A stretch of DNA of 64,000 nt from an uncultured Chloroflexia bacterium (GCA_963841825.1 CAWJEL010000034.1:374-64373); one strand, 5' to 3'; numbered from the stretch's first letter, positions 6,173 to 64,000 are shown. The notes: a model not told the origin generated them from the letters alone. Made by a program: numbers and translations.

Positions 6173-7573
6173 TTAGATCCTGTCGAAGTCTACCCCGAGC
6201 AGGGTCGCGATCTTCTCCACTGTACCAGCCCAATGGCCGTAGGCCAGGGCCTGGTGATGCGAGCCGCCGGCCAGGCTGTAGCGCGTCAGGAAGTCAGCGA
6301 GCGGCGCGGTGGGCGCGAACTTGTAGTGCGGGCGGCCCATGTCGAGGACGTATGGGAAATCCACCACCTGACCCTCAGTCACCACCAATTTCAGCCTGCC
6401 TCCTGGCCCCGTGACCAGGCTGACCAGGGTGACGTCCCCCGGTTGCAGGCTGAAGGCCAGCAGCAATGGCGCGACACGCAGATCCACCAGGCCCAGGGTG
6501 CTCCGCAGCGCCCAGACCGGCTCGTCCTTGCGGGCCATCGTCCAGTTCCCCTCACCCATATGCATCATCAGGACCGCGTTGTGGGCGAAATCCATGGTGA
6601 ACATCTCGGTGAAGTTGGCTGAGCCGGCCAACTCCCGCATCATGGCCACCGCAGCAGAGCTCGTCGCATCGCCTTCGCCGCCGAAACCGTAGCCCTCGCC
6701 CATCAGCTTGGCGGCGGCCAGGAAGGGCAGCGTGTCCAGCCAGCTCTCCTCGCCGACGGCCACAAAGTGAAAGGTGAAGCCCTGCAGTTGCCGCTCCTGC
6801 AGGATTTTGCGCAGGCCCCATTCCAGCCGGGAGCTGGCCGCGTGCTCTTCTTCGGTGATGCCATCCTGGAAACGGAAGTTCTGCCGGTCGAACGCCATCT
6901 GGGCGGCGACTTCTTCCTGGGGCGCGGCTTTGGCGCGTTCGGCCAGGCTGCGCATGGCGATCCGCCGCACTTCCACGCCCATCTGGCTGAGGAACGCGGT
7001 GTCGTCCAGGCCAAAATCGCCCATCCCCTCCATGGGATAGCCGATCAGCCCGATCTGCATCTGGCGCAGGAAGCGGATCGTGCGCGCGGCGTCGCACCAC
7101 GCTTTGACCTCGGCCTGGGTCGCCGCGTCCTGGTAATGGCCGGTGACGATTTGAAATGCGCGGCCGGCGCGCAGGAGCACGTTGGCCAGGTCCTGCACGC
7201 CGTGCATGCCGTGGTTAAAGGTGGTATCGTCCGATGACGTATCGGCTGTGACCCCCTCCAAGCGCTGGGTGTTGTAGAGCAGGATAGGCAGACGCGTGCG
7301 GACCAGCCCAGGCAGTGCGATGTGGCTGGGCGCATAGGTCAGCAGCACCACGATGATCAGGTCTTTCCCATCGCGCTCGAATCCGGCGATGGCTTCATCC
7401 ACTGCCGCGCGGGTGTTACAGACGCCGGGGAAATCGACCTCGGCAAACGGCGCCAATGTCGTTGCCAGCTCCGAGGCGAAGCCGGCCATCTGCGGCTTCA
7501 GCTCAGGCCAACGATCGTAGAGTTCCAGCATCAGGCCCAACAGGCCGATCCGGGCCTTGGTTGTCTCAGCCAT
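6173..7573 (-). CDS. L-arabinose isomerase family protein
   Basis: 466 aa. The blocks VTGHYQD, GYGFGGEGD and AGGSHHQALAYG match conserved AraA blocks as I recall them. Confidence 0.8.
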   Translation of the reverse strand: MAETTKARIGLLGLMLELYDRWPELKPQMAGFASELATTLAPFAEVDFPGVCNTRAAVDEAIAGFERDGKDLIIVVLLTYAPSHIALPGLVRTRLPILLYNTQRLEGVTADTSSDDTTFNHGMHGVQDLANVLLRAGRAFQIVTGHYQDAATQAEVKAWCDAARTIRFLRQMQIGLIGYPMEGMGDFGLDDTAFLSQMGVEVRRIAMRSLAERAKAAPQEEVAAQMAFDRQNFRFQDGITEEEHAASSRLEWGLRKILQERQLQGFTFHFVAVGEESWLDTLPFLAAAKLMGEGYGFGGEGDATSSAAVAMMRELAGSANFTEMFTMDFAHNAVLMMHMGEGNWTMARKDEPVWALRSTLGLVDLRVAPLLLAFSLQPGDVTLVSLVTGPGGRLKLVVTEGQVVDFPYVLDMGRPHYKFAPTAPLADFLTRYSLAGGSHHQALAYGHWAGTVEKIATLLGVDFDRI

Positions 7574-9123
7574 TTTGGCTATCCTCCTGAACAGGGTTTG
7601 GGGATTGGGGACCGGTGACTGGTCTGGCCGTCCGGTCGATCAACGCATGACTCAGTTCCCGGTAGGTTGTGAACAGGTCGTCGTAGAGCCGTCGCACCGC
7701 AGGGTCGGGCGTCAGGCTTGTCTCGGCGCCCTGGAAGGCGGCGAAACCGGCCTGCGGGTCGCCGAAGATTCCCGACGGCCGTCCCAGCCAGGATCGCGGC
7801 CCCGCGGCTGGCGGCCTGGCTCATGGCGGGGAGCACCACCGGGATGCGCGGTCACGTCGGCCACGATCTGCGGCCAGACGTTGCTCCGGGCCGCGCCGCC
7901 GACCATCCGCAGCTCGGCCACGTCGATGCCTGCCTGGCGCATTTCGCTGATGGCCCAGCGGAGCTCGAAGGCGATGCCCTCCATCACGGCCCGGGCCATC
8001 TCGTCCCGGGTGTGGGGCAACGACAGGCCGATGAAACCGCCGCGCGCCGGTCCGAAGCCGGCAGCATGTCCGCCGGCCAACGGATAGCATAGCAGCCCGC
8101 CGGCGCCCGGCGCCGCGCGCGCCACCCCGGCGTTGATGGCCGCGTAAAGATCGGCGCGGTCTTCGCCGGCCGCGCGCTCGCGCCAGACGTTGTCGATCAG
8201 CCATTCCAGGGACGAGCCAACCGCCCCGATGGAGCGCATGGCGCCCCAGATTCCGTCCAGCACGTGCCGGCCGATCGCGGTCCCGCTGCGCAGGCCCACC
8301 TCGAGGTCATCGACCACGGCCAACACCACCCAGGCCGTGCCGCACGAGAGCATCACCTTGCCGGGCTGCATGACGCCCGTGCCGACCGCTGCGCAATATT
8401 GATCGTGCGCGCCGTTGGCGACGGGCAACCCCACAGGCAGGCCGGTCGCAGCGGCAGCCTCGGCGTTCAACGTGCCCACCAGGTGGCCCGCCGGGTGCAT
8501 GGGGGACAACTGGTCGCGCCGGACGCCCACCAGCGCCAACAGGCGTTCGTCCCAGTCGCCGGTGGCGATGCTGAAGAGTTGGGTGATGCCGGCGTCCGTT
8601 GGATTCATACACAGCCTGCCGGTCAGGCGCAGGCCGATGAAATCGTTGACGAACAGGTAGTGGCGCGCGGCCGCGTAGAGTTGGGGGGCGATTGTCTCTG
8701 AGCCAGCCGATGTGTTGGAGCGGCAGCGCATCCTGCAAGGGCCAGCCGGTCGTCGTGCGGATGAACTCGGCCCCGACCTGCGCTCGCACCGACCGCAGCC
8801 TGCGTGGCGCCCCGCGTATCCATCCAACTAATGGCGTTGTAAAGGGGGGTCCCGGCGGCATCGACCGGAATCGTCGTGCCCCCCTGCGATGACTGCGCCA
8901 GGCCCAGCACCCGGTCGTCCGGGTCAAGCTGGCCGGCAACGGCGCGCAGCACCTCCACGACGGCGCGCCACAACGCCTCAGGGTCTTGCTCCACCCAACC
9001 ATACCCCGGCGTGATCAGGCCGTAGCCTGAGCTGGCCTCTGCGAGCGCAACGCCAGTCAGATCGAATGCCACGGCCTTGGTGGCCGTTGTGCCTACGTCG
9101 AGCCCGATCAGGATATCTGTCAT
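7566..9123 (-). pseudogene. FGGY-family carbohydrate kinase (xylulokinase-like), 4 frame breaks
   Basis: The N-terminus ILIGLDVGTTATKAVAFD, a middle block (AQVGAEFIRTTTGWPLQDALPLQHIGWLRDNRP), then CGTAWVV...MVGGAARSNVWPQIVADV and the C-terminus VLPAMSQAASRGAAILAG...LYDDLFTTYRELSHAL lie in successive frames. Breaks are near 8810, 8700, 7846 and 7769. The stop overlaps the araA-like start (ATGGCTGA). Confidence 0.8.
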
Positions 9124-10215
9124 AATAGCACGTTTTGCTTGTCAGGGTGCGGCAGAGGCAGGGCGCCGTGCCGTAAGAGCGCCTGCGAGATCGTGGAGAG
9201 GCTGCCGCGCCAGGCATTCTCAGGCATATCCTCTGTGATGCCGATCAGAAACCGGTCGCCGGGTGCTGCCTCGCTCAGAATACGGAGCGTCTCGGCCCGG
9301 ACTATCTCTTCCGATTCCAGGTGGACCGACGAGGGGAAATTGATCCAGAGCACCTTGTCCGCCCAAGCGGCCCGCGCCTGGGCGATCGTCACGTCGCAGG
9401 TTGGCACAGGCGTGAACGCTTCGACAACGTCCAGCCGGCAGCGGCCGACAGCCTCGACCAGCGTGCTCATGTTGGCGTCCAGATGGCAGGCCGCCAGCTT
9501 GCCGCTCTCGTGGACCGCGTCAGCAAACGCATTCAAACAGGGCACGTAGTACTGCTCAAAGCGCTTCAGTCCGACCACGTCCTGGTGGATATTGCCGCCG
9601 TAGATCAGCAGTTCGGCCGGGGAGGCCGCGGCCACCCGGTACATCTCGCGCTGGCTCGCGACCAGCAGCTCGTAGAGCCCAAGCAGGCGGTCGGGCTGAC
9701 GCCGTAGGTCCAGGCTGAAACGCTCGATGCCCAGCCACTCGATGAGCAGTTTGTTCATGGAGGTATACCCGGTGTTGCCGATCACGTAACCGTCCTCGCC
9801 CAAGCCGCTCTTCGGCGAGGCGAAAGGCCTCATAATTGGGCACGTACCGGGTGTCGCGCACCATGAACTCCAGCACGCGGTAGTCGTCCGGTTCCTTGAG
9901 GTAGAACTCCTTGGTGAACCAACTGGTGCCGTAACTGGGATCGAGCGCTTTGACCGCGTGTACCTCGCCGACGGGGGTCCGCACCGTCTCGGCCAGCATG
10001 CGCATGCCCGCGCAGTAGTATTCCCGGGTGACGACCTCCACGTTCGGCATCTCGACCCGGTAGACCGGGACGCGTTCGACGACGGCCACGCCTTCGTTGC
10101 GCAGGCGGCGCTCCACGTCGCCGCGCGGGAACATGAGCCAGTAGACGCTGAACGGCACCCGGTCGGCCCACTCCCCGTGCAGGGCCGCGCGAATCCTGGC
10201 TCGCGGCGTCAGCAT
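9120..10215 (-). CDS. URO-D (uroporphyrinogen decarboxylase / MtaA-CmuA) family protein, one frame break at 9799-9801
   Basis: The N-part MLTPRARIRAALHGEWADRVPF...AFRLAEERLG joins GEDGYVIGNTGY...VVEAFTPVPTCD...FLIGITEDMPENAW after a G3/C3 run. Confidence 0.75.
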
Positions 10216-10217
10216 GG

Positions 10218-10940
10218 TCAAGAGGCTCCGTGCGGCAGCATGTTGGCCAGCGGCGTCCGCCGCGAGGCCAGGCAAGGGCGAAAGACCTCGGCGTACGCCA
10301 CGCCGGCGCGCGCGCCCACCTCGCGGCAGTGATTTCGATGTTCCTCGGCCCAGTCCCCGCCGAAATGGCGCATGATGGCCATCTGGCTCTCGTGAAGGTT
10401 GATCACGCGCACCTTTTCGTCGACGATCGCCTCGCTCAACTCGACGAAGTGCGTGCCCTCGAAACCGAAGCCGGCGCCGGGGTCACAATGGAAAATCTTG
10501 GGCGTCACGGGCAGTGCCGGGTGCTCGGTCTTGATCGATGCAATCATCGTCAACATCGCGCACTGCAGGACAAGCTGGGCCGTGATGGTGTGATCGGCGT
10601 TGTATTCGTCGATCCAATCCGTGAAAATCAGGTCGGCCTTGCAGGCGCGCAGGGCGTCGATCAGCTTGAGGCGCACAGCCTTGGAGTCGAACAGGTACTC
10701 ATCCGGCTCGCCCAGGCAAATGTAGCCGGCGTCCAGGCTGGCAGCCACGGCACGCATCTCGCGTTCTCGCACCGCGGCAACCACTTCGTAGGGCGTCTCG
10801 GTGTCGAACGTGAAGCCTTTGTCGCCGTTCGTGGTACAGATGAAGGTGATGCTGTGACCGCCTTCGCGGCGGTACCTGAGCAGGGTCCCGAGCGCGCGGG
10901 CCTCGTCATCCTGATGTGCGCCGACGTGGACGATGTTCAC
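10218..10940 (-). CDS. PIG-L / LmbE family deacetylase
   Basis: 240 aa with the N-terminal motif VHVGAHQDDE (AHPDDE-type). Confidence 0.8.
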   Translation of the reverse strand: MNIVHVGAHQDDEARALGTLLRYRREGGHSITFICTTNGDKGFTFDTETPYEVVAAVREREMRAVAASLDAGYICLGEPDEYLFDSKAVRLKLIDALRACKADLIFTDWIDEYNADHTITAQLVLQCAMLTMIASIKTEHPALPVTPKIFHCDPGAGFGFEGTHFVELSEAIVDEKVRVINLHESQMAIMRHFGGDWAEEHRNHCREVGARAGVAYAEVFRPCLASRRTPLANMLPHGAS

Positions 10941-10942: not shown

Positions 10943-12107
10943 CTACTTCTCCATCAGATAGATCGCTTCGTGGAGCTTTTCGGCCATCTCCCTGGCTTGC
11001 GGCACTTCGAGGAAGATGAGGCCGGCGGTCACCAACCGCGGCATGAGATCCTCTGTGACCGGCGTCAGCCCTTGAACATAGCGGTAGTCACTCTTATGAA
11101 CATAATATGGACAGCGGGTCGGGCAGTCGGGGTGCTTGTAGACGGTGGGAGCCCGGAAGAACTCGAACTCGTAGGGAGGGGTCTGGTTGAAGCCAAAACG
11201 CAGCCCGATTTTCAGCTCGTCGTTCAGCTTTCTGGAATCGTTCATAGCTCAGCCCATGCTTGTCGCCCTCCCAAGTGGAGGCCCACCAGTAGCCGGACAC
11301 CTGCGAGCCGGGCAGCACGGCGCGTGTTTTGAGCCACGCGCAGTCCTTGATCGCCTCGTTTAGGATGCCGAGCGTGACGTTGTAGACATTGTCCAGGTAC
11401 CCCTGGACGCGCTGAAGCTGGGCCAGGCCGATGGCCGCGGTGACTTCGTTCATGCGCCAGTTGAGGGTCATGAAGGCCGGGGATTCGCCGCTGAACCGCC
11501 AGACGTTGCGGATCTTCTCGGCGAGCGCTTCGTCGTTCGTGATGCTCATCCCGCCATCGCCGGTCGTGAGCTGCTTGTACTCCTGGAAGCTGAAGACGCC
11601 CATGTCGCCGAAAGTGCCGACGTGTTTGCCCTGGTAGTAGCAGCCCACGGCGTGGGCGCAGTCCTCGATCAGGAACAGGCCGTGCTCATCGCAGATTCGC
11701 CGGATCTCGTCGATCCGCGCCGGGTAGCCCCAGTGATGGGTGACAATGACGGCCCGCGAGAGATCGGTGATGTTGGCGCGCAACGACTCAGGATCCATGT
11801 TGTACGTGTCGTATTCGACATCCACGAAGCGCGGCACCGCGTTGAACCACACCGCAGCCAGCGCCCCGAAGTGGACGATGGGGTCGCACAAGACCTCGGT
11901 CGCGGTGCCGGCGCCGCTTACCGAGATTGCTTCGGCCAGGCCGTTCATGGCATTATTGCGCGACATAGCCACCTTGGCGCCGACGAATTCGGCGAATGCC
12001 TTCTCGAACTGCTCCTGCATGCCCCCAGGCGTGATCCAGCCGAGCTGCCCGCGCTGCAGGACCTCCCTGACGTAGCCCAGCTCCAGGTCGTCGTAGGTAC
12101 GAATCAT
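10943..12107 (-). CDS. DegT/DnrJ/EryC1/StrS-type PLP aminotransferase, one frame break at 11229-11231
   Basis: FLIEDCAHAVG, FSFQEYKQLTTGDGGM (PLP-Lys region). The C-terminal 100 aa continue in the frame of ORF 10943-11245 after an A3/T3 run. Confidence 0.8.
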
Positions 12108-12147: not shown

Positions 12148-13194
12148 TCACAGCGGAAGCGTCACAACGCACTTCTCGCGGGCGGCCAGGGTGGCAGCGA
12201 AGCAGGCTTCGCTGGTCCGATAGGCGCTATCCACATCGTTGAGCGTGGGCATATCGTTGGCCACTGCCTCGATGAAGTGGTCCAGGCACTTGTTCCAGGG
12301 CTCGCCGATGCCGCCCTGCACGTTATCCGGGATCCAACTCTCGGGCAGCTTGACGTAATCTTTTTCGTGCCCCGGCTCAGAGAACTCGGGGGCCGAATCG
12401 AGCCAGACCCGGTTGTTGATCATGCTGCCCTTCGTGCCGTAGAGGGCGAAGTTGAATGTGAATGGCAGGATCGGGCCGGCGCAGAACATCACCTTGCCCA
12501 TCATGCCGTTTCTAAAGCGGAACGTGGCGATAGCGGTGTCCTCGGTTTCGATTTGCGTCGTGCGGGGCAGACAGATGTCCTTGAAGCAGGAGACTTCTGC
12601 GATGTCGCCGCCGAAGAAGCGGATCAGGTCCACGTTGTGCCCGGAGCCGGCGTGGAAGAGCGAGCCGGCGATCGCCTCGTTGCCGAGCCAGCTCCAGATG
12701 TCCCAGTCACCGGGGATGTGGTGCAGGTAATCGGACTCGACGAAAAAGACGTTGCCGAAGTAGCCCTGGGCAATCAGTTTACGGGCATGTTGGTAAAGGG
12801 GATTGAAGCGCCGGTGATAGCCGATCAGGAACTTGACACCGGCCTCATGAACCGCGGTCTGGATCCGCTTGCAATCTGCCAGCGTGAGCGCCATCGGCTT
12901 TTCCAGGTAGATGTGCTTGCCCGCCTGGGCCGCCGCGACGGCCTGCTCGGCGTGGGCGCCGTTCGGGGACGCGATGATGACGGCGTCGATGTCATCCTGC
13001 CGCAGCAGTTCTTCGGGATCGCAGTAGCAGCGTGGCGAGACTTGCTCCTGCGCCATAAACCGCTCGACTTTTTCCCGGTCGCAGTCGGGGTTAGCCAGCG
13101 CCACAAGTTCGGCCTGGGGGTTCTTGATGACATTGTGCCCGTGGTGGCTGCCGATCCAGCCCACACCGATGAGACCGATCCTCACTTTATCCAT
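12148..13194 (-). CDS. Gfo/Idh/MocA family NAD(P)-dependent oxidoreductase
   Basis: 348 aa with the IGLIGVGWIGSHH Rossmann start and the KHIYLEKPMA motif. Confidence 0.85.
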   Translation of the reverse strand: MDKVRIGLIGVGWIGSHHGHNVIKNPQAELVALANPDCDREKVERFMAQEQVSPRCYCDPEELLRQDDIDAVIIASPNGAHAEQAVAAAQAGKHIYLEKPMALTLADCKRIQTAVHEAGVKFLIGYHRRFNPLYQHARKLIAQGYFGNVFFVESDYLHHIPGDWDIWSWLGNEAIAGSLFHAGSGHNVDLIRFFGGDIAEVSCFKDICLPRTTQIETEDTAIATFRFRNGMMGKVMFCAGPILPFTFNFALYGTKGSMINNRVWLDSAPEFSEPGHEKDYVKLPESWIPDNVQGGIGEPWNKCLDHFIEAVANDMPTLNDVDSAYRTSEACFAATLAAREKCVVTLPL

Positions 13195-13285: not shown

Positions 13286-13423
13286 TTGTCACGGCTTTGC
13301 CGTGAGCGTGGTCCCTTCTCGTTACGGTGTGACGCCAGCGAAGAATCTCCTTGCCGCAACGAGACCCTTCGCTGGATTGCCGCGGCAACGCACTTCACGG
13401 GACCAACCCGCTCAGGGTGACAA
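13286..13423. repeat. MITE-like inverted-repeat element, family 1 (copy A, divergent termini)
   Basis: TTGTCAC...TGAGCG terminus and CGCTCAGGGTGACAA terminus. The internal hairpin is CCAGCGAAGAATCTC...GAGACCCTTCGCTGG. Related copies lie at 32796, 46886 and 59506. Confidence 0.7.
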
Positions 13424-13446
13424 TAGCGAGTTTCGCCCTATGGCTT

Positions 13447-14352
13447 TCAATCCACTTTCATGCGCGGATCGAGTGCTGTGCGCAAGCCATCACCGATCAG
13501 GTTGAACCCTATGACGGTTATCAGAATGGCCATGCCGGGAAAAATCGTGACCCAGGGGGCCATGCGCATGAATCCCTTGGTTTCATAAAGCATCAAGCCC
13601 CACTCGGGGGTGGGTGGTTGGGCGCCCATTCCCAAAAAGCTCAGTGCGGCCGTATTGCGGATTGCCACACCGACACAGAGCGTGAGCACGACGATGACAG
13701 GAGCAACCACATTGGGCAGGATGTGCCGCCACATGATGCGTTCGTCGCGTACGCCGATCAGCCTGGCGGCTTCGATGTAGGGCAGCTCTCGCGCGGAGAG
13801 CACGGAGCCGCGAATCAGGCGGGCGTACATGGGGATCCACACGATGGCGATGGCGATCATCACCCAGGTCAGGCTCCGTTGGCCGATCAGGCCAATAATG
13901 GAGAGTGCCAGCAGCGTCGCGGGGAACGCGAAGATCATGTCCATAAAGCGCATGATGATGCTATCGAACGCGCCGCCGTAATACCCCGCAGCCAGGCCGA
14001 TGATCATGCCGAGGATAACCGAAAAGAGATTGGCGAGGATGCCGACCTGCAGGGAGATGCGTGAGCCGTAGATGACGCGGCTGAAAATATCGCGGCCGTA
14101 GTGATCTGTGCCCATCCAATACTGCGCGCTGGGAGGAGCAAGCGATCCTTAGGGTGCATCTCAATGGGACTGTAAGGCGCCAGCAGGGGTGCAAGAATGG
14201 CTACGAGCACGACAAGCAGCACAAGCACAGCGCCGATCGTGGCCCCTCGGTTTCTTAGGAACTGCCGGAGGACGATCTGCCGCCAACTCGTCGGTTTACG
14301 TGTCGAGGACTACCGAATTGTTGAGGGTTTGACTGGTGGAAATGGATGTCAT
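13447..14352 (-). CDS. ABC transporter permease (DppC/OppC-like), two frame breaks (about 14300 and 14131-14133)
   Basis: [31 protein letters not shown]..., then [27 protein letters not shown] and a C-terminal EAA-loop region. Confidence 0.8.
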
Positions 14353-14394
14353 GGCGGTTCAATAGTCTCCTGGTTTCGTCCAGGGCCCCTGATA

Positions 14395-15327
14395 TCAGCT
14401 ACCGGAGGAAATTCGAATACGCGGATCCATCACGGCGTAGAGCACATCGACAAACAGATTGACCAAGATAAAGACCAGCGACCCGAGCAGCACCACGCCT
14501 TGAACAACCGGCATATCGGCGGTTAGCACGCTATCCACCACCAACCGGCCGATGCCTTCTCGGGCGAAGACGATTTCGACCACAACCACGCCGCCCAGCA
14601 CAGCGCCCAGATTGATGCCGATAATGGTGACGGTGGGGATCAAGGCGTTGCGCATGGCGTGACGGGCGATGATCGTCCGCTCCCGGAGACCTTTGGCCCG
14701 GGCGGTGCGGATATAGTCTTCGTGAATCACCTCCAGCAAACTCGATCGCACCGTACGAGCGATGACACCGGCCTCGGTCAGGCCGACGACGATCGTCGGC
14801 ATGATCAGGTGTTTGAGATCGCCCTGGCCGAGGATCGGCAGCCAGTGCAGTTCGAGAGCGAAAAGATAGATCATAATCAGGGCCAGCCAGAAATCGGGCA
14901 TGGCACTGCCCAGCAGCGCCAGGATCATTGCCCCAGTGTCCCAGATGGAGTTTTCCTTGAGCGCTGCCATAATGCCCGTAACGAGGCCGATGATGATTGC
15001 GACCAGCATGCCGGCCAATGCGAGTTCCAGGGTTGTTCCCAGCCGCGCCCCGATCATACTAAGCACAGGTAGCCGCTGGACATAGGATGAACCCAGGTCG
15101 CCAACGGCCAGGTGCGCGAACCAGTTGCCCAACTGCACAAAGAAAGGCTGATCCAGTCCCATCTCCAGGCGCAAATTTTGGATCTGCTCGGCGTTGAGAT
15201 GATACATGTTGCCCATATTTTCGGCAGGGTCGTAGGGCGAAAAATACATGAGGCAGAATACGATCACTGCCACCCCAAAGGCCGTGGGGATCGCGGATAG
15301 CAGGCGTTGTCCGATGTAGCGGGTCAT
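14395..15327 (-). CDS. ABC transporter permease (DppB/OppB-like)
   Basis: 310 aa, with an MTRYIGQRLL start and DYIRTARAKGL (EAA loop). Confidence 0.9.
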   Translation of the reverse strand: MTRYIGQRLLSAIPTAFGVAVIVFCLMYFSPYDPAENMGNMYHLNAEQIQNLRLEMGLDQPFFVQLGNWFAHLAVGDLGSSYVQRLPVLSMIGARLGTTLELALAGMLVAIIIGLVTGIMAALKENSIWDTGAMILALLGSAMPDFWLALIMIYLFALELHWLPILGQGDLKHLIMPTIVVGLTEAGVIARTVRSSLLEVIHEDYIRTARAKGLRERTIIARHAMRNALIPTVTIIGINLGAVLGGVVVVEIVFAREGIGRLVVDSVLTADMPVVQGVVLLGSLVFILVNLFVDVLYAVMDPRIRISSGS

Positions 15328-15404
15328 GGCGTCTCCTCTGCCGCGGAAGCGCTGCAGGGTAGGGAGGACGGACGGTGTGTCGCCGGCCCCCCTGATTGAA
15401 TCAC

Positions 15405-15442: not shown

Positions 15443-15485
15443 CGAGCTCTCGCCCTGGGATCAGTCTGGGCGAGTGGTCAGGCGT

Positions 15486-52507: not shown

Positions 52508-52520
52508 AGTCGTCAACACC

Positions 52521-55431: not shown

Positions 55432-55554
55432 GTACTACAACCGCACTTCATACTTGCACGGGCGCTGAGCGTGTCGAAGCACAAGCGCTGACCTTGCTGG
55501 CGACCGCCTTTCGACGGACTCAAGGCTCGTTTGTAGGAAATGCGGTTGTGGTAC
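55432..55554. repeat. MITE-like element family 2 (copy 2)
   Basis: GTACTACAACCGCAC ... TGCGGTTGTGGTAC with internal CGCCTTTCGA...ACTCAAGG. Confidence 0.7.
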
Positions 55555-56306
55555 TAGCCGAGCCGCAGCAAGCGGCGTGCATTATCGCCGATGATCTGGC
55601 GTTTGGCCGCGTCTGAAATCGCGGCCGTGATAATCTTGCCCAGTTGTGCGCGTGGATCCATCAGCGGGATATCCGAGCCAAAGATGACCCGATCCGCACC
55701 TGCCTCCTTCACCAGTTGTTCGATCACGCCCGGGGTGCGAAAGGTGGAGGCGGTTTCCAGGTAGACGTTGGGATGGGCCTGCGCCGCGGCAATCGCCTGG
55801 CCGTGCTCGACGGGGGTGTTGCCGGCGTGCCCCATCACGAAATGGGCGCGCGGGTAGTGAGGCGCAATCTCGCCGATCAGCTTGGGTAATGACTGGGGTT
55901 CAGCACCCGTGTGGAAGATTACGGCCAGGCCGCGCGCGTCGGCAAAGCGATAGATCGGTTCCCAGGGCAGCTCGTTCAGCGGCCAGGGTGTATAGGGTGG
56001 ATAAAGTTTGATCGCAGCGAAGCCCAGTACGTCAAATGCCCGGCTCAGTTCGGGCAGCATGCGCTCCGGCATCAACGGCGAGACATAGGCGAAGCCGATG
56101 AAACGCTGCGGGTGTTGCGCCACGAAGCGGGCCGTCAAGTCGTTTCCGGTCGTTCCATCAGGGTGAAAGATGTTGAAAACGCAGGCCCGATCGATGCCGG
56201 CCGCGTCCATGGCGTGCAGCATGCGCGCCGGTTCATCGAGCATGCCGTAGCGGTCCCACCGGCCGACATGGCCGTGAAAGTCGATGACTTGAACGCCATC
56301 GATCAT
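55554..56306 (-). CDS. Amidohydrolase_2-type protein
   Basis: 250 aa with VIDFHGHVG and VIFGSDIP. Confidence 0.85.
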   Translation of the reverse strand: MIDGVQVIDFHGHVGRWDRYGMLDEPARMLHAMDAAGIDRACVFNIFHPDGTTGNDLTARFVAQHPQRFIGFAYVSPLMPERMLPELSRAFDVLGFAAIKLYPPYTPWPLNELPWEPIYRFADARGLAVIFHTGAEPQSLPKLIGEIAPHYPRAHFVMGHAGNTPVEHGQAIAAAQAHPNVYLETASTFRTPGVIEQLVKEAGADRVIFGSDIPLMDPRAQLGKIITAAISDAAKRQIIGDNARRLLRLG

Positions 56307-56318
56307 GCCATCACCTTC

Positions 56319-56408
56319 CCTTCGATCCTTCGATCCTTCGACCCCGCTCAGGACAGGCTTCGCTCAGGACAGGCTCCGCGCTGGAGAGGCTTCGCTCAGG
56401 GCAGGCGC
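56319..56408. repeat. Short tandem repeats: (CCTTCGAY)x3 then 4 degenerate 16-mers CGCTCAGGACAGGCTY
   Basis: The 8-mers lie at 56319-56342 and the 16-mers at 56345-56408. The last copies encode the C-terminus and stop of gene 56364-57165. Confidence 0.8.
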
Positions 56409-57165
56409 CAGGATCCGCTCCAGATTGCCCGCGCAGACCAACGCCAGCTCAGCTTCGTTCAGATCAGTATGGTGCAGGTAAAACAACACCGGTCCCATGG
56501 CGTACTGCGAGTACCACGAGCCATAAATCAGCCGGCTGGCGCCGAATTCGTCACGCAATGCCTCGATCTCACCGATCGGCTCGTAACGACTCAATTCCAG
56601 GTGGGCGTTGGGCAAGCGGGCCAACAGCGGGCGCACCTGGAGATGATGGACATAATGTGCACCGACCAACACCGTCACCAGATCAGGATGGCCCTGCAAG
56701 GTCGTCACCAACTCATCGGCGTCCGCACTGGGCAGCGGGATCCAGACCGGGATGTGTTGCGCGTCCAGCCAGGCCAGGAGCGGGTCGTAGGCCCAGGGGC
56801 GGAAGGGCAAGCCCGCCATGCGCGTATCGTGCAAGCGCACGGATGTCACGCGGCCCTGCCGATGCAGTGCTTGCAGTTGCGCCAGCGAGGCCGCCGTGGG
56901 CAGGACCGACCATTGCGGAACCAGGCGGGCATCGCATGCCCCGTTTTTTAGGGCATCCATCTCCAACCAGGATTCCAACAGGACGTTACCTTCGACCGGG
57001 CTGACCTCTTCTGTGAGGGCGTGGTAGATGACCGCCCGCTCGACGCCGTGCCGGTCCATTTCGGACAGCAATGCTGCCCGATCGTGGCAGGGCGCTGGTT
57101 GCTCGGGCAGGTCGCCGACGCGGACGTTGGCATCAAAGACCGGGACGCGCTGGCTGGAAGGTCAT
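56364..57165 (-). CDS. Degenerate amidohydrolase_2-like protein lacking the HxH motif, one frame break near 57140-57160
   Basis: The N-terminus reads VFDANVRVG where paralogues have IDxHxH, and GSWYSQY where paralogues have GSDxP. The ATG at 57165 is in a different frame from the body. Confidence 0.6.
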
Positions 57166-57170
57166 CGATC

Positions 57171-58110
57171 TCATGACATATCCCGAAGTTCAGGGTACGC
57201 CAGCCACTCCGGGAAGCGTTCATGCAGGATGCGTTTGCAGGCCTGGTATTGTTCCTCTCTGAAGCATTGATAGGGAGAAAGCAGGCGCAGCGGCATTTCC
57301 TCCAGGCCGCTCAGGCGGACCAACATCTTGTCATACGCGCCATCGATCCGTTCTTCCGCGAGGACGGGACCAAACACGCCATACAGCATGTCATGAAATT
57401 CTTTCTGCAGGGTGAACAAAGCGTCCATGTCGCCCTTGCGCCCGGCATCGAACAGCGCCTTGGTCTTGTGGGGAGACATCGCCCCGAAGGATGCGAGCAG
57501 TGAGCACTCGCCGTACAGACACCCGTGTGGGAAGTTCGCCTCGCCGAAGAAGTGCTGCAATTCCGGCGCCTGGGTCATGAGCGAGGCGGCCCTGTCCATG
57601 CCGCCGCCGGTGTTCTTTGTGGCGACCAGGTTTGGCACGGCATCGATCAGTCGGCGATAATCCGGGCCCATCAACACGCGCTTGGCGCGCGGCAGGTTGT
57701 AGTGGAGGAATTGCGCATCGGGAAATGCCCCGCAGACATCGCTGAAGAAGGTCATGACCTCTCTGTCATTGAGAGCGCCCCAGGAGGGCAGGGTGACCTG
57801 GAACACGCGAAAACCCACCCGGTGCGCGGTACGCGACACGCTCGACGATATTGGCGGTCGAGAGCCCGATCACGCCGACCATGGGATGGATGTTTGCCCC
57901 TCGCGTTTCCTCGTAAAAGATGCGCACGATCTGTTGGAAACGCGCCGTGTCCACCGCATAGCCTTCACCCGCCGTGCCGAACACGTAGATATGGTCGAAG
58001 TGTTGGCGCGCGCCACGCACCTCGCAGCGGAACACATCCTCCAGCAGTTGTTCGTCGTCATCCCAGGGAATTTCACAGGAAACCAGGATTGCTTGTGGAT
58101 AGCGAGCCAT
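57171..58110 (-). CDS. DHDPS / N-acetylneuraminate lyase (class I aldolase) family protein, one frame break near 57845
   Basis: VFGTAGEGYAV (GTxGE), LHYNLPRAK (YNxP) and NLVATKNTGG (Schiff-base Lys context). Confidence 0.75.
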
Positions 58111-58145
58111 CGCGACCTCTTCTGTGGACGGGTTGATGCACCGTC

Positions 58146-58174
58146 AATGTAGCATGAGTTTCGATTCGTGTCAA
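58146..58174 (-). promoter_or_regulatory. Sigma-70-type promoter TTGACA-N17-TACATT with embedded ATCGAAAC operator-like motif
   Basis: Read on the minus strand it is TATTGACAcgaatcgaaactcatgcTACATT, about 36 nt upstream of the ATG at 58110. Confidence 0.6.
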
Positions 58175-58217
58175 TAGGGTATTAGTAAGACGCACATCCT
58201 GTGGCTGGAAGTGATCG

Positions 58218-59321
58218 CTATCGAAACATCAGTCTCGCGTATCGAATCCCCTGCCCTGCCGGCTGCACGCACCAGAGGACCATAAGCAGAGTATTGTCGG
58301 GTAACAACACCACGGCTGGCTCGCCGAACGAAAAGTCCGTCCACGCGGTGTGTTCGCCCGAGCTTCCGCCCTGTGTGCGCGTCTGCGCGCGCCAGGCGAT
58401 CTCGTTTGACTCGACACCGAAATCGCGCTCTGTGGGTCTCACCACCGCGACCCACACGCCTGGCTCATCATGCTTGCGCTGGTTGTAGATGAACAAGGCG
58501 CGGCCGTCGGGCAGCGCGGTGAGGCTCGTCGATTGCCCCATGATGCCGGTCGAACGGGTTGGCTGCCACGTGTCGCCACTGTCGAGCGAAATGGCGTAGG
58601 CGTTCGGGTGGTCCGATCCATCCTGCTGGTTGAGATGCCATGTCGTGCCGAGCAAGCGGCCGTCAGCGAGTTCGATCACCCACGCTTCGGCGCCGGTCGA
58701 GTGTTCGCTATCGAAGCGGATCATGGCGTTGTACTGCCAGGTTTTGCCCTGGTCATCGCTGCGCAGAGCGACGATCTGGTTGCGATCGACGACGAGCTGC
58801 GGGTCGAATGTGTTATACGGCGCGTAACAGCAGATCATACGACCTGAGCGCATGGCTGTCAGCGCGCCGGGGGCTTCGGCGGCGCCCGGGATCGGCATCG
58901 GGATAACCTCCGGCTCGACCCACGTCCTGCCGCTGTCGGTGGAACGGGACCAAATCAGTTCGTTGGCCTTCAACCCTTGCGTCGCATCCGACCAGAACGT
59001 CTCGCCCGGCGTTTCGATGGGGTAGCGCGATCCGAAGTAGAACAGGCCCCCATCGGGCGCACGGCTGATGGAACCGAAGATCGAGTAGCGGTCCTGGAGG
59101 TGCGGCCAGAGCAACTGCCCCTCTGACCAGGTCTGGCCGCCATCCCTCGAGCGCGCAAGCATCGGCTTGAAATCGTTGATGCCGAGCTTCGACTGCACCA
59201 TGAAGGAGCAGACGACGTCACCCTCGTTCGTAACCGCGCACCGTGGCCCGGCCGCGATAGCGGTAGGTGTCCCCGGCTGACGCTGTGTAACCCAACCTTC
59301 GGAGATCGTTTCAAACGTCAT
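58218..59321 (-). CDS. BNR/Asp-box beta-propeller (sialidase-like), no signal peptide
   Basis: The start MTFETISEG lies 7 nt after GGAGG. Asp-boxes are SRDGGQTW, STDSGRTW, SDDQGKTW and SLDSGDTW. Confidence 0.8.
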   Translation of the reverse strand: MTFETISEGWVTQRQPGTPTAIAAGPRCAVTNEGDVVCSFMVQSKLGINDFKPMLARSRDGGQTWSEGQLLWPHLQDRYSIFGSISRAPDGGLFYFGSRYPIETPGETFWSDATQGLKANELIWSRSTDSGRTWVEPEVIPMPIPGAAEAPGALTAMRSGRMICCYAPYNTFDPQLVVDRNQIVALRSDDQGKTWQYNAMIRFDSEHSTGAEAWVIELADGRLLGTTWHLNQQDGSDHPNAYAISLDSGDTWQPTRSTGIMGQSTSLTALPDGRALFIYNQRKHDEPGVWVAVVRPTERDFGVESNEIAWRAQTRTQGGSSGEHTAWTDFSFGEPAVVLLPDNTLLMVLWCVQPAGQGIRYARLMFR

Positions 59322-59505
59322 GATTTTGCCTCCATCAAGCATCACCGCTTCACGCCCAGGGTCATTCAATTCTCCACTATAGTCATGCTGAGTGCTGCCA
59401 AGCCGCACGGCAGCATGCGGGTAGTCAAAAGAAGTGCCGCTTGTCATGTTGAGTATAGCCATGGCATCCGCTTGGCGTCATGCGGGTAGGCCAAGAAGCA
59501 CAGCT

Positions 59506-59712
59506 TGTCATTCTGAGCGGGTTAACCACCCAACACTCGTTACGGTCAGACATCAGCGAAGAATCTCGTGCTGGTACTTCATGAGCAGCGAGTTTGCGAC
59601 GCAATCCGCGTTGCAGCAAAACGCCAGCGAAGCATCTCGCGCACCGGAACGAGACCCTTCGCTATTTATTTGGCGTATCAACGTCTCTTCGTTGAACTCG
59701 CTCAGGGTGACA
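59506..59712. repeat. MITE-like element family 1 (copy D, internal duplication)
   Basis: TGTCATTCTGAGCGGGTTAAC ... CTCAGGGTGACA, with two CAGCGAAGMATCTCG cores. Confidence 0.75.
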
Positions 59713-59738
59713 ATCTCTGAGAATTGAATGACCCTGCT

Positions 59739-60452
59739 TCACGCCAATTCAATACCCGGAAAACCGGGGTATACTATCCGCACTTCGTCCAGATACACGT
59801 ATCCTTCGGGAAGGCGCGAGCGCCAGACCGGATAGTCCTTCTCCGGTCGCAGGCGGTGGGGATCGCCCTCAAGCGGGCCCATCGGCGCGACGTCGAGCGG
59901 ATGCAGCACCAGCAGAATGTCGGTGTTCACGTCGCGCAGCACGTCCACCAGCGGGATCTCCCCGTAGAAGTCCGTCCGGTCGTGCCGCGATCCCAGGCAG
60001 GTCCACTGCGCCGGATCGGGGACGGCGGTGACGGTCTGCTCGCTCCAGTCGGGCGTCACGCGAAACGGCTGGCCGGTGAGCAACCAGCCGGAGCAGAGTC
60101 CGCCCTGCACAGCCTGACACAAAAGTAGAAGTTGCGCGTCCCTGGCCTCCACTTCGCCCCGAAGGCGCAGCGTGATGCGAGCATCGATGAAGTCGGTGGG
60201 GAAGCCGCCCCGGACGAAACGGTTCTCCCCTTCCACCTCGCGCTGATGCTCGCCGGGCTTGCCGCGGGTATTCAGCATGTACAGCAGATGCAGATACCCC
60301 GCGCCGGGCGGGGCGTGGTTGTAGTCGATCCACCACGGGCTGCGGCTGAGCGCGCAGCCGTCCCGGATCTCCAGCGGTTTGGGGCCGGCTGAATTGCTGA
60401 GCCAGCCATACCAGCCGCCCGGTCCGTCATCGAAGGTTTCAACGTATCGCAT
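59739..60452 (-). CDS. Hypothetical protein (no motif recognised)
   Basis: 237-aa ORF with high third-codon GC, wedged between two BNR propeller genes. The N-terminus is MRYVETFDDGPGGWYGW. Confidence 0.6.
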   Translation of the reverse strand: MRYVETFDDGPGGWYGWLSNSAGPKPLEIRDGCALSRSPWWIDYNHAPPGAGYLHLLYMLNTRGKPGEHQREVEGENRFVRGGFPTDFIDARITLRLRGEVEARDAQLLLLCQAVQGGLCSGWLLTGQPFRVTPDWSEQTVTAVPDPAQWTCLGSRHDRTDFYGEIPLVDVLRDVNTDILLVLHPLDVAPMGPLEGDPHRLRPEKDYPVWRSRLPEGYVYLDEVRIVYPGFPGIELA

Positions 60453-60504
60453 AGCGCAACTCCTCTGGAAACTGTGTGTCCTGGCGCCGAGGCCGCGCGT
60501 CCCC

Positions 60505-61620
60505 TCAACCGACCGACAGCTTGTACCACCGGATGACGGATACGCAGTCCTCGTAGCACCAGAAGGCTACGAAGATCGTGCCGTCGGTAAGACGAACCAC
60601 GCAGGGCGCGCCGAAACGCAGCACCTGGAAGTTCTGCACCATGTTGCTGGAATCGCCGGTCAAGCCTTGGGCTGCCGCGCCCCAGATCGGTGTCTCGTCA
60701 TCGTTGACCCACCGATCCCCCTCCAGGTGCGACAGGTTGGCCCATAACCCTGGCCGATCGATGCGGCGGTAGATAAGGAGCACGCGACCATCGTCCAGGA
60801 CATAGGGAGTCGGCGTCTGTCCTCGCAGGCCGGTGGACTGCGGGGCCGACCAGCTATTGCCACCATCCGCGCTGAGCGCGTAGTGGTTCGGCAGATCAGA
60901 CCCGGCAACCTGGTCGTAGACCCATGCCACCGCCAACAGCCGTCCGTCGGGCAGCTCGCAGATCTTGGATTCCCAATAGATGATCTTTTGCTCCGAGTCC
61001 CACATTACATCTCGATACTCGGGCCAACTTTGCCCACCATCTCGCGAGATGAAGGCCACCATCTTTGTGCCGTTAGGACAATCGCCATCCCAACTCCGCC
61101 AGGTGGAGGTGGGCAGGAACCAACGGCCATCGCGCAGCGGGAGGATCGGGCAGCACAGCTCAAAGGATGGGCCCACCAGCGGTGGGGCCAGTGGCTCGGG
61201 TGATCCCCACGTGTGACCCGCATCCGCCGACCAGAGGAGCAGGGTTTCGGTGGGCACGAAGCCCATGTTTTCCGGGTTGGCCAGGCCCTCGTCGGGGTGG
61301 GCGGTGCGGTCGGAGCGCACCATGAACGCCACGACGCCGCCGTCGGGCAGCGCCGTGAGACGGGCCGCGTCCGAGGTGAGCCGATCCGTCGTGCCGGGGT
61401 AAATCGGCCCCTGGAGATGCCACGACTGCCCGAGGTCCGTGGAACGGGCCAGGTAAGTATGGCAGTTGGCCGACTCGAACGCCTCGCCCAGCACCAGCGA
61501 GCAGAGCAGTTCGCCGTTTGCAAGCTGCACAACTGAGGGGAAGTAGGCATGGATGGCGTGGACATGCGGTTTCGGGTTTCGGTAGATCAAACCCGTTCCA
61601 AGAACAGCAATCTCAGACAT
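60505..61620 (-). CDS. BNR/Asp-box beta-propeller (sialidase-like), no signal peptide
   Basis: 371 aa with Asp-boxes STDLGQSW, SADAGHTW, SRDGGQSW and SADGGNSW. Confidence 0.85.
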   Translation of the reverse strand: MSEIAVLGTGLIYRNPKPHVHAIHAYFPSVVQLANGELLCSLVLGEAFESANCHTYLARSTDLGQSWHLQGPIYPGTTDRLTSDAARLTALPDGGVVAFMVRSDRTAHPDEGLANPENMGFVPTETLLLWSADAGHTWGSPEPLAPPLVGPSFELCCPILPLRDGRWFLPTSTWRSWDGDCPNGTKMVAFISRDGGQSWPEYRDVMWDSEQKIIYWESKICELPDGRLLAVAWVYDQVAGSDLPNHYALSADGGNSWSAPQSTGLRGQTPTPYVLDDGRVLLIYRRIDRPGLWANLSHLEGDRWVNDDETPIWGAAAQGLTGDSSNMVQNFQVLRFGAPCVVRLTDGTIFVAFWCYEDCVSVIRWYKLSVG

Positions 61621-61631: not shown

Positions 61632-64000
61632 CTATGCGTAGGACACACTGACCTTATGCACCCGCGGCGTGCGAGCCGCGTTGATGGCCCCGAGGGCCAG
61701 CCGATATTGAATCCAGGGACCGCTGAACCGGTCTGTAGACGTGCGATCACCGTTCTCGAACCAGCTCCCGGCAACCAGCGCGCCCTGCCACGGCGCCGCG
61801 GCAAGGGCGTCCTCGCTCGCGGCCGAGCGTAACTGCGCCCGCACCCAGGTTTTGGCTGGCACGTCGGCCAGCCAAGCGATCCGCGTGACCCGGCTGCCTT
61901 CCGGCAGCACGTGGGGGGGCGATAAGTAGTATTCAGCGTCGCCGCCGTCAGAGGTGTTGCGCGGTTCTACCGAGATCATCCCGTGCGGTCCGAACGTGGG
62001 GAGTCTGGTCACCCGCCTCTCGTCAAACCCGTCGGGTCCGTTCCACCACACGGTCGAGTAGCCCACATGGTCACCCCAAACCTTGTGATACGCGATCGCC
62101 AGATCCACCCAACCATCTTCGTTGAAGTCCGCGGCCACAACGCCCGAAGCCGAATGGGTTAAGAGGCAGGTGCGGTCCGTCGCCGAGAACCCGCGACCGG
62201 CCCGGTTCCAGTAGATGTATGAAGCGATGTCGCGCTCCTTGGTCCCGTGGTAAGAACCTACAAAGAGATCGAGCTGGCCGTCGTTGTCAAAGTCGGCCAA
62301 CGTCATGGCGTTGACGGCATTGGCCGGCAGCAGCGCGCGATTGTCTTCGCGCAAGCCGTCGGGCCCGTTCCAATAGATGTACACGAAGGAGTCGTGCGGG
62401 CCGTCCAGCGAAGGCTGATGGCCGCCGATCAGAAGATCGAGATAGCCATTCCCAGTGAGATCGGCCGTGCGAGCACAACAGGCATGCCGCACCGAAAGGA
62501 GCTGGCATCGGTCCAGGCTGAAACCATCAGGTCCGCCCCACAGGATCAGGCTCCGATCCGAGACGATGTCCGGGATAAACAGGTCCAGCCAGCCGTTGTT
62601 GTTCAGGTCGGCCACGTGCAGCGTGCGCGGCTCCGAAAGCAAATGCCCATCCCGAAGGTCCAGGCGAATGCGGACTGGAGCGACGGCCGCGAGTCCGTCA
62701 GGGCCGCCGTAGAAAATCAACAGTTCTGGGTTCATGAAACCACAGAAGACCAGGTCCAGGTAGCCGTCCTGGTCGAGGTCCGCACAGGCCACGCTCATGG
62801 ACCTCGCCGTCGGCAGGATCCAGTCCGGCTTGTCCCGCAATCCGCGCTGGCCCGTTGAGATAGATGTACGAGCCCGGATCGCGCCAGACCGAGTTCTCAG
62901 AGGCGTTGGCCACGACGAGATCAGCGTATCCGTTGTCGTTGAGATCGCAATAGAGCGCATCGACTGCCCCCCAGGCCGGCGGGCTCCAGCAGCGCTCTGG
63001 GGTGAAGCCGTCGGGACCGCCGAGGTAGATGGTTACGGGCAGGTTGCCCAGGCGGACACGGCTGGCCGCGTTGACGAAGACGATGTGGGGCTGTTTGCCC
63101 GGGCCCGGACGCACCACCAATATCCGGCGCGCGTCGTGCGTGACAGGCCGCGCCGCCTCCGTGATATACCTTCCCGGCGGCACGCGACACACCAGCGAGT
63201 GGGTGGTGTACGACTCGGCGTCGTGGTGCTGGCACAGGAGGATCTTCATCCCGGCCATTGCCATCGAGGTCGACAAGGGCGACATCGCACGCGCGCTGGC
63301 TGGGGAGCCGCGTGCGGCTTGCCTCGCTGAACCCATCCGGGCCGCCCCAGTAAACCCAAGAGCACTCGCCGTCGTATGCCCCGCCGTTCTTCTGGGCATC
63401 GCCCTCCGGCTGCCGGCAGGCCAGGACGAGATCCGGATACCCGTCCCCGTCGGCGTCGCCGGCCGCGGCCGAGAGCGGGCGATGGACGGCGAAGATGATG
63501 GGTGAGTCGAAGGCCCGGCTGCGAAGCACCGGCACCAGGCAGGCCGCCTCGCTGCGGGCCACGAACAGATGCGGTGTTCTGCCGAGCTGCAGCACCTTCA
63601 CGAGCGGCCGTGCGTCCTCCATCGGCTCCTCAAAGGTGAGGTACGAGGTCTCGGACGTGGTTTTTGGCCCCGACGGGGACTCCTCCGCCGCGATGGGAAC
63701 CACCGATGCCGTGCCCGGCGTGATACCCGCCGGCCCACCCCAGTAAACGATCACTTGCCCGTCCGGCTGCCGCACCACCAGGTCGGCATAGCCGTCACCG
63801 TCCAGGTCGTGCGCCGCCAAATCCTCGCCCGCGATCTCCAGGTCGATGAATCCCTTGGGCTCAAAGGCCGGGAGGGTCTGATAGAAGACAGCGGCACCTT
63901 GCCGGCGCACAGGAACGCCAGGTCGGGCCGTCCATCGCCATCAAAATCGCCGGCTGCGACCGCACTACACTGGGGGGCGGGCAGGAGCTGTCGCCGCGTC
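61632..64000 (-). pseudogene. FG-GAP/VCBS repeat protein, 5' end outside window, at least 3 frame breaks (about 62830, about 63250, 63897-63898)
   Basis: Repeated DxDxDG motifs (DFDGDGRPDLAF, DLDGDGYADLVV, DADGDGYPDLVL, DLNDNGYADLVV, DLDQDGYLDLVF, DFDNDGQLDLFV, DFNEDGWVDLAI) are spread over three frames. Confidence 0.75.

Follow-up and report, generated by a model that had tools for sequence, protein, structure and literature searches.

The 64,000-nucleotide stretch of DNA from an uncultured Chloroflexia bacterium analyzed here (GCA_963841825.1 CAWJEL010000034.1:374-64373; below, the window) raises the question of which metabolism is served by a gene array that repeats a few enzyme families so many times. 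From 6.1 kb to the window end, about 52 genes comprise eight members of the uroporphyrinogen decarboxylase (URO-D) superfamily, six amidohydrolase_2-like proteins (AH2), four BNR/Asp-box propellers (BNR), two MttB homologues and three DeoR regulators, as found by Pfam, NCBIfam and local profile searches. These counts agree with an earlier interpretation made from the DNA alone (the sequence-only reading), which had listed seven URO-D-like genes plus a divergent relative at 53491. Since a usual genome holds one hemE, eight URO-D-superfamily genes among about 52 are more than chance. What emerges is a mosaic catabolic island, carried by an uncultured soil or sediment Chloroflexota-like bacterium and built from several anciently diverged copies of one unit, consisting of a propeller, an MtaA-like URO-D-fold enzyme and an AH2 enzyme. 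Tentatively, and with slightly less than even confidence, we favor the reading that this mosaic with its one repeated trio encodes several parallel pathways, paralogous and cytoplasmic, that break down imported sugar-like compounds decorated with amino and/or methyl groups.

The copies of the trio are accompanied by different accessory genes, namely an HpcH aldolase and an FGGY kinase in one case, MttB, a TIGR04076 protein, a class-III aminotransferase (AT3) and an aldo-keto reductase (AKR) in another, and a lyase of the dihydrodipicolinate synthase (DHDPS) type in a further one. An Opp-type importer module and the three DeoR genes are interspersed among them. The trio groups are arranged as follows.

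25070-32713, minus strand: core module, in the order BNR, AH2, UROD, AH2, UROD, HpcH/HpaI, AH2 (Pfam)
31559-32713, minus strand: BNR of the core module
30463-31562, minus strand: AH2 of the core module, frameshifted
29343-30425, minus strand: UROD of the core module
28320-29333, minus strand: AH2 of the core module
27067-28303, minus strand: UROD of the core module, frameshifted
26285-27070, minus strand: HpcH/HpaI aldolase of the core module
25070-26119, minus strand: AH2 of the core module
45495-53487, minus strand: MttB module, in the order AKR, AH2, MttB, TIGR04076, BNR, UROD, AT3 (Pfam and NCBIfam)
52513-53487, minus strand: AKR of the MttB module, frameshifted
51405-52496, minus strand: AH2 of the MttB module
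49805-51295, minus strand: MttB of the MttB module
49449-49793, minus strand: small Cys-rich TIGR04076 protein of the MttB module
48189-49361, minus strand: BNR of the MttB module
47076-48146, minus strand: UROD of the MttB module, motif H-S-C...H
45495-46811, minus strand: AT3 of the MttB module
55554-61620, minus strand: third propeller/AH2 group, six genes
55554-56306, minus strand: AH2
56364-57071, minus strand: weak AH2
57171 to about 58110, minus strand: DHDPS-type lyase, frameshifted, 32 bits
58218-59462, minus strand: BNR
59739-60452, minus strand: 237-aa protein without Pfam match between two BNR genes, with a homologue in the related locus L096
60505-61620, minus strand: BNR

The genes of the core module abut or overlap, which suggests an operon. 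Within the window, paralogue identity is mostly 20-35%, with three closer pairs at 44-65%, and this points to old diversification instead of recent duplication or assembly collapse.

The modules recur in independent assemblies, the nearest relatives being uncultured Chloroflexi bins at 89% identity; related loci are numbered with an L below. L001 keeps the series BNR-AH2-UROD-AH2-UROD-HpcH-AH2, followed by FGGY, with the window's 9.1-25 kb absent between the same neighbors; judged from this comparison of sequences, that segment appears to be an insertion, or it was lost in L001. The order of the core module is partly kept in L008 and L101, and L008 joins the MttB module, whose order is preserved there as well, directly to the core module within about 16 kb. 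Likewise, L090 and L091 keep the complete series AKR-AH2-MttB-TIGR04076-BNR-UROD-AT3, with an importer inserted in L091. The TIGR04076 gene stands directly upstream of BNR 48189, and the same adjacency is seen in both of these loci. A minimal BNR-UROD-AH2 operon beside a DeoR gene is present in L165/L166, where the opposite strand carries a divergent operon of binding protein, OppB, OppC, AT3, GFO and DeoC; the trio UROD of L165 is 77% identical to the window protein at 34383, and its AH2 is 81% identical to a window gene. Of the metagenome loci that surround MttB orthologues, 28 span 7 kb or more, and the partners in these were UROD (14), AT3 (13), BNR (10), AH2 (9) and AKR (8), with no B12 protein. 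A contrast set of 80 loci around URO-D-like genes of 33-40% identity, from more than 15 phyla among the matches listed and without close relatives among them, contained essentially none of the island partners, and clustering of the neighbors gave no recurrent family. The co-occurrence is therefore real and confined to the sampled Chloroflexota-like contigs, so that the families travel together in L001, L008, L090, L091 and L165/L166 and are not scattered paralogues.

Five of the URO-D-like enzymes exceed the PF01208 gathering threshold of 23.9 bits with 73-130 bits (23929-25044, 27067-28303, 29343-30425, 44187-45311 and 47076-48146). The genes outside the modules listed above are the following.

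9120-10275, minus strand: URO-D-like, frameshifted, two overlapping open reading frames (ORFs), motif C-H-L-D
23929-25044, minus strand: URO-D-like, motif H-V-D...S-H (PF01208, 83 bits)
34383-35510, minus strand: URO-D-like, frameshift near 34.75 kb, motif H-I-D
44187-45311, minus strand: URO-D-like, the most MtaA-like of the set, motif H-I-C (PF01208, 130 bits)
53491-54558, minus strand: very divergent URO-D-superfamily protein, motif H-L-H

As read, the gene at 34383 reaches 15.5 bits to PF01208, and with its frameshift bridged it shares 83% identity with a PF01208 protein of L001; the gene at 9120, split over two frames, matches the same L001 protein in tblastn (E 5e-16). The protein at 53491 has no Pfam match of its own. 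A profile of its family, built from 22 of 629 library relatives, matched the URO-D profile over 225 columns (95% probability, E 4e-8), and nine of the 23 family members match PF01208, which confirms its place in the superfamily at the level of profile-profile comparison only. Two members tested against HemE (TIGR01464, cut-off 303 bits) scored 22 and 41 bits and are thus not HemE of the haem pathway. The NCBIfam scores to MtaA/CmuA are higher than those to HemE, and MtaA/CmuA is the best-scoring named family, yet with 51-117 bits far below the cut-offs of 235-244 (TIGR01463 and NF004889); for the gene at 44187, the values are 108-117 bits and the cut-offs about 240. An AlphaFold model of 29343 (pLDDT 93) lies nearest to Methanosarcina MtaA (4ay7), followed by HemE and then MetE, and 4ay7 is the best Foldseek match to this predicted model in the PDB with a TM-score of 0.66-0.70. 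In a profile-to-MtaA alignment, H-S-C-G of the family falls on H-I-C-G of MtaA, and A-P-S-H on A-P-G-C, positions which we take to be the zinc ligands of MtaA. H252 and C254 do not vary across 16 sequences of the family, and H338 hardly does. Within the window, His-x-Cys occurs in 29343, 47076 and 44187, with His (29343, 47076) or Asp (44187) at the third position where MtaA has Cys.

Five AH2 genes (25070, 28320, 30463-31562, 51405 and 55554) score 64-133 bits to PF04909, above its gathering threshold of 26.4 bits, and 56364 lies below it with 21.6 bits. A His-x-His motif is visible in the translations of 25070, 28320, 30567, 51405 and 55554. The nearest solved relatives of 55554 are decarboxylases and uncharacterized hydrolases at E 1e-9 or weaker, and a search of the PDB sequences with two of the core AH2 genes gave no informative relative.

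The four propellers (31559, 48189, 58218 and 60505) are mutual homologues, and Asp-box motifs are visible in the alignment of the family. As the sequence-only reading had stated, they show no N-terminal hydrophobic leader, judged by eye on the translations and not by a predictor. An AlphaFold model (pLDDT 89) presents a six-bladed sialidase-type propeller, with GH33 structures at a TM-score of about 0.65. The best match of the window propellers is Dfer_1899 of Dyadobacter fermentans (PDB 5hx0; profile E 1e-21, TM-score 0.69-0.73), which is only 22% identical and itself a structural-genomics protein of unknown function, so that no function can be transferred. GH33 exo-sialidases carry a conserved catalytic Arg triad, a Tyr/Glu nucleophile pair and an acid/base Asp; the alignment of 13 family members shows one invariant Arg and no invariant Tyr or Glu; the alignment of the propeller profile with sialidase chains is blade-shifted and not usable for mapping catalytic residues.

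The sequence-only reading had proposed that the island imports an amino- or acidic-sugar-containing oligomer and degrades it in the cytoplasm. In this version a single pathway would serve one oligomer, such as one with sialic, legionaminic or pseudaminic acid, with the propellers as sialidases and the DHDPS-type protein as a NanA-type lyase. An amino-sugar or nonulosonic flavor of the parts is indeed compatible with the sialidase-type fold, the DHDPS-family lyase, the NagB-like protein, the PIG-L deacetylase and the GFO oxidoreductases, as well as with the DegT-type protein at 36926, whose nearest families are LegC (197 bits) and PseC (191 bits; cut-offs about 420). L090 additionally carries a second DHDPS gene and DUF386, the YhcH/NanQ family; of the genes of this locus, DUF386, the 2-hydroxyacid dehydrogenase and the enolase-type dehydratase were searched in the window and are absent. 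Sialidase function fits poorly with a family devoid of invariant Tyr and Glu and with a nearest structure of unknown function, and no ROK-kinase or epimerase Pfam family (NanK and NanE types) was found among the ORFs scanned. Moreover, relatives separate and reorder the modules, L001 does without 9.1-25 kb, the window contains many intergenic gaps and three regulators, and eight URO-D-like, six AH2 and two MttB proteins would be left without a role. We consider a single pathway for one oligomer unlikely, and return to several parallel pathways as the favored reading.

Of the two MttB homologues, one belongs to the MttB module, the other to a block on the plus strand.

38267-44130, plus strand: module of DeoR 2, MttB, double GNAT, two Cys-rich proteins and GFO/IDH/MocA
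38267-39163, plus strand: DeoR 2
39244-40716, plus strand: MttB homologue
about 40930-42034, plus strand: double GNAT protein, frameshifted
42105-42527 and 42527-43074, plus strand: pair of Cys-rich proteins without Pfam family, the second frameshifted
43150-44130, plus strand: GFO/IDH/MocA

This block is also present in L090 and L096, with the Cys-rich pair kept in both. The two Cys-rich proteins (42105/42527), downstream of the plus-strand MttB, are paralogues with a common D-C-P ... Y-C-E-H-C motif. Against a PF06253 gathering threshold of 25 bits, the MttB genes at 39244 and 49805 score 194 and 165 bits, and their PDB relatives are MttB and MtgB-type chains. With 252 and 172 bits to the pyrrolysine-type family TIGR02369 (cut-off 525) and ORFs not interrupted by an amber codon, both are non-pyrrolysine members.

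The importer, regulator, isomerase, kinase and aldolase genes support a catabolic role for the island; the features not yet listed are as follows.

6173-7573, minus strand: AraA-like sugar isomerase (Pfam AraA_N, central and C domains)
7712-9124, minus strand: FGGY sugar kinase, at least two frameshifts (Pfam FGGY_N and FGGY_C)
10218-10940, minus strand: PIG-L/LmbE-type deacetylase (PF02585, 71.6 bits)
11094-12107, minus strand: DegT-type aminotransferase, C-terminal end frameshifted (PF01041, 227 bits, profile positions 7-271 of 360)
12148-13194, minus strand: GFO/IDH/MocA oxidoreductase (Pfam)
13447-17228, minus strand: Opp-type importer with permeases 13447-14115 and 14395-15327 (PF00528) and family-5 binding protein 15486-17228 (PF00496)
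17476-18255, minus strand: DeoR regulator 1 (HTH_DeoR and DeoRC)
18424-24029, minus strand: accessory module of divergent AT3, alpha/beta hydrolase, HisD-family dehydrogenase and fused CoA-transferase (Pfam)
33157-34212, minus strand: NagB-like protein of the sugar-phosphate isomerase/deaminase fold (NCBIfam nagB E 1.3e-10, 41 bits; cut-off 237)
35611-36963, minus strand: major facilitator superfamily (MFS) transporter (PF07690)
36926-38212, minus strand: DegT-type aminotransferase (PF01041, 272 bits)
54611-55396, minus strand: DeoR regulator 3
61632-63910, minus strand: FG-GAP/VCBS repeat proteins, frameshifted, possibly running beyond the window end (PF13517 and PF01839)

The PIG-L protein, two DegT-type and two class-III aminotransferases, two GFO oxidoreductases, the family-5 binding protein with two permeases, the MFS transporter, the DHDPS-type lyase and the weak NagB-like protein had been named before and were all recovered. 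The picture of an importing island is likewise borne out by binding protein, permeases, MFS transporter, regulators, isomerase, kinase and aldolases, while its restriction to one pathway for one oligomer is not. Nearest NCBIfam families were L-arabinose isomerase for 6173 (140 bits; cut-off 622), BshB1 for the PIG-L protein (46 bits; cut-off 182), IolG for the GFO protein at 12148 (161 bits; cut-off 355), FadX for the fused CoA-transferase, and a glutamate-1-semialdehyde (GSA)-aminomutase-like family or GntE for one aminotransferase. The HisD-family dehydrogenase (21037-22311) exceeds the NCBIfam hisD domain cut-off of 244 with 412 bits, and its neighbors are the CoA-transferase, hydrolase and aminotransferase genes, not his genes. 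The binding protein has a lipobox-like N-terminus on inspection of its translation, DeoR 17476 is 63% identical to the DeoR beside the minimal trio of L165, and the NagB-like protein is 64% identical to its L090 counterpart.

The combination of DegT, GSA-aminomutase-like aminotransferase, PIG-L and IolG-like oxidoreductase resembles the parts of aminoglycoside biosynthesis, and the region might accordingly be read as a cluster for an aminocyclitol, an aminoglycoside-like compound or an unusual glycan. ORF scans revealed no glycosyltransferase, nucleotidyltransferase, cyclase or exporter family, and importer, DeoR, kinase, isomerase and three aldolase-type genes speak for catabolism, which makes a biosynthetic product very improbable.

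Minus-strand genes occupy 6.1-38.2 kb and all of the window from 44.2 kb onwards, and they are separated by a plus-strand block at 38.3-44.1 kb. The G+C content of the window is about 63% and declines to 0.59-0.61 across the importer module (12-20 kb), which indicates a mosaic composition; tRNA and Rfam scans of the window gave no match. The left flank (639-5533) falls to 0.60 and holds three genes.

639-1844, left flank: phage-type integrase, middle part garbled (Pfam)
2402-2875, left flank: HNH endonuclease (Pfam)
4793-5533, left flank: Thr/Pro-rich protein with a weak Excalibur-like C-terminus

With the integrase and the HNH endonuclease in the first 6 kb, the left edge of the island adjoins the remains of mobile elements. 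Besides, about 100 bases of the spacer between the GFO and permease genes (13301-13430) are 75-92% identical to three intergenic spots of L001 (9823-9923, 14358-14466 and 15765-15813); the window holds one full copy and a 17-base match at 32871-32887, and by its sequence this stretch looks like a lineage-specific intergenic repeat.

At least 12 genes in the 58 kb are broken by frameshifts (examples are 7840, 8740, 9800, 28185, 30740, 34750, 41000-42000, 42800, 53000, 57850 and 63000-63400), so that a region of pseudogenes, or a paralogue density produced by misassembly, had to be considered. The encoded sequence keeps 60-86% identity to orthologues before and after each shift, as in the FGGY gene at 7712, which matches the L001 FGGY gene in three tblastn pieces of different frames, and no nonsense codons were seen at the frameshift sites inspected. 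Paralogues of 20-65% identity are not collapsed or duplicated repeats, and the same modules stand in independent assemblies. Single-base indel error is the simpler explanation in view of the long-read-style names (contig_N) of related records and the identity kept on either side; the frameshifts are thus probably long-read errors, and a degraded or misassembled region has very little to recommend it.

For the favored parallel pathways, the substrate class is suggested by the aminotransferases, the deacetylase, the NagB-like protein, the IolG-like oxidoreductases and the MttB homologues. Sugar-like compounds decorated with amino and/or methyl groups, or else small glycosides, would enter through the binding-protein importer and the MFS transporter, and intracellular cleavage of a glycosidic or ketosidic bond would fall to the propellers. 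Acyl groups may then be taken off, or lactones opened, by PIG-L and AH2 enzymes, amino groups may be removed by DegT-type and class-III aminotransferases, and GFO/IDH/MocA, AKR and HisD-family enzymes could set the oxidation state. Isomerase, kinase and aldolases would lead to pyruvate and small aldehydes or sugar phosphates, products that the DeoR regulators may sense. MttB and the His-x-Cys URO-D-like enzymes would most plausibly strip methyl groups from N or O, as three-component corrinoid systems do, with the corrinoid protein encoded elsewhere in the genome, and the URO-D-like proteins with His-x-Asp or other motifs probably perform different chemistry. The paralogy would thereby reflect parallel pathways for related substrates and not one long pathway.

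Several observations weigh against this reading. All enzymes except the HisD domain score far below the curated NCBIfam equivalog cut-offs. The importer is without an ATPase gene, as are those of L091 and L165, and in the propellers the lack of family-wide sialidase catalytic residues makes even a glycosidase role an assumption. The metal-site motif varies among the URO-D paralogues of the window (H-x-C...H, H-x-C...D, H-x-D, Y-Y-C and H-L-H), and with several motif types one common reaction is unlikely. If the frameshifts were real mutations, parts of the island would be decaying. With regard to demethylation, no B12-binding domain was found in any frame of the window, nor a cobalamin riboswitch among Rfam matches, and only one of about 32 related module loci (L091) holds a corrinoid protein. 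His-x-Cys URO-D-like homologues occur, among the matches listed, in Acidobacteriota, Armatimonadota and Planctomycetota. These three phyla are typically aerobic. This spread, together with an adjoining corrinoid protein in only 4 of the 80 distant loci (among the matches listed), argues for a corrinoid-independent role of most members. The demethylation part is uncertain, since the window and nearly all relatives lack the corrinoid gene and the URO-D-like proteins extend into typically aerobic lineages.

The corrinoid protein of L091 (13736-14371, 211 aa, B12-binding_2 and B12-binding) lies inside the module right after the aminotransferase; a search for it in the window found none. Its presence supports a link between the pairing of MttB with MtaA-like enzymes and corrinoid systems, and the known three-component systems pair MttB-superfamily enzymes with URO-D-fold methyltransferases (PMC13222342). 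The claim of the sequence-only reading that the MttB and URO-D steps have no described equivalent was therefore too strong, even though the window itself has no such protein. Taken further, the island might chiefly harvest methyl groups, with MttB as first and MtaA-like proteins as second methyltransferases acting on quaternary or N-methyl amines and the other genes processing the demethylated skeletons. The two MttB genes, the MtaA-like fold with its ligand motif, the orthologous module of L091, the four diverse URO-D-like loci with adjacent B12-binding genes and the architecture of the known systems would agree with that. Against it, the 64 kb contain neither a corrinoid protein nor an activase nor a pterin-binding methyltransferase, the corrinoid gene is missing from 31 of about 32 related loci, most of the eight URO-D-like proteins are without His-x-Cys, and the core module, which has no MttB, is conserved alone; methyl harvesting as the main purpose is accordingly doubtful and quite improbable. 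In L165, an ECF-type transporter (double ABC ATPase and CbiQ) and a protein with a pterin-binding domain (16771-20224) lie about 6 kb from the minimal trio; a link with methyl transfer via folate or corrinoid is conceivable.

A bolder extension of the parallel-pathway reading, to which we give a low probability, is that the BNR-UROD-AH2 trio is a new catabolic unit in which the MtaA-like zinc enzyme acts without corrinoid on an alkyl, methyl or thiol group attached to a sugar, joined in some modules by an equally corrinoid-free MttB homologue. If true, this would be a new type of chemistry for processing glycosides or amino sugars, widespread among uncultured bacteria of soils and sediments, and MttB/MtaA-like pairs working without corrinoid partners would widen the scope of these methyltransferase families. 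Otherwise, the island maps how uncultured Chloroflexota diversify their catabolic modules. For the URO-D fold, no assigned role was found in the literature outside haem synthesis and methyl transfer in methanogens and acetogens, and the His-x-Cys subfamily has relatives in more than 15 phyla, including a cultured gut bacterium, Christensenella tenuis NSJ-35 (among the matches listed). The recurrence of the trio in soil and sediment Chloroflexota-like assemblies thus offers a concrete, testable operon for assigning functions to three large families. The undescribed, conserved trio in a paralogue-rich catabolic island is a target for enzyme discovery and not a new kind of genetic system.

The literature on the family combination, on URO-D-like proteins in sugar contexts, on MttB in Chloroflexi and on TIGR04076 yielded nothing relevant, and no characterized pathway matching the gene set was found there, so that the comparison is with systems sharing parts of it. 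In nan and nag clusters with GH33 sialidases, an Asp-box propeller, a DHDPS-type lyase, a NagB-like protein, a deacetylase, a GFO oxidoreductase, an importer and a regulator are met as in the island. Unlike there, the window propellers are cytoplasmic and devoid of family-wide catalytic residues, the matches stay far below equivalog cut-offs, and of the NanA, NanK and NanE set only a DHDPS-family gene is present, with no ROK-kinase or NanE-type gene among the ORFs scanned. We know of no nan cluster with URO-D-like, AH2 or MttB genes. In corrinoid systems, the first methyltransferase is of the MttB superfamily or the URO-D fold and is combined with a corrinoid protein and a second methyltransferase, as exemplified by MtgB, MtcB, MtpB, MtyB, CdmBCA and MtaABC (PMC13222342). 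The island differs from them by its missing corrinoid protein, activase and riboswitch, by His or Asp instead of Cys at the third ligand position and by its embedding among propellers, AH2 enzymes and aminotransferases, a combination of which no description was found; it resembles them in that its MttB genes lie a few genes from an MtaA-like URO-D gene, that His-x-Cys aligns on that of MtaA and that one relative carries a corrinoid protein in the same module. Compared with paralogue-rich loci of the polysaccharide-utilization type, the BNR, UROD and AH2 families have no assigned role in carbohydrate breakdown and no glycoside hydrolase of the carbohydrate-active enzyme type was detected, whereas the overall plan is alike: variants of a repeated unit come with their own regulator or transporter, and their order is a mosaic between relatives.

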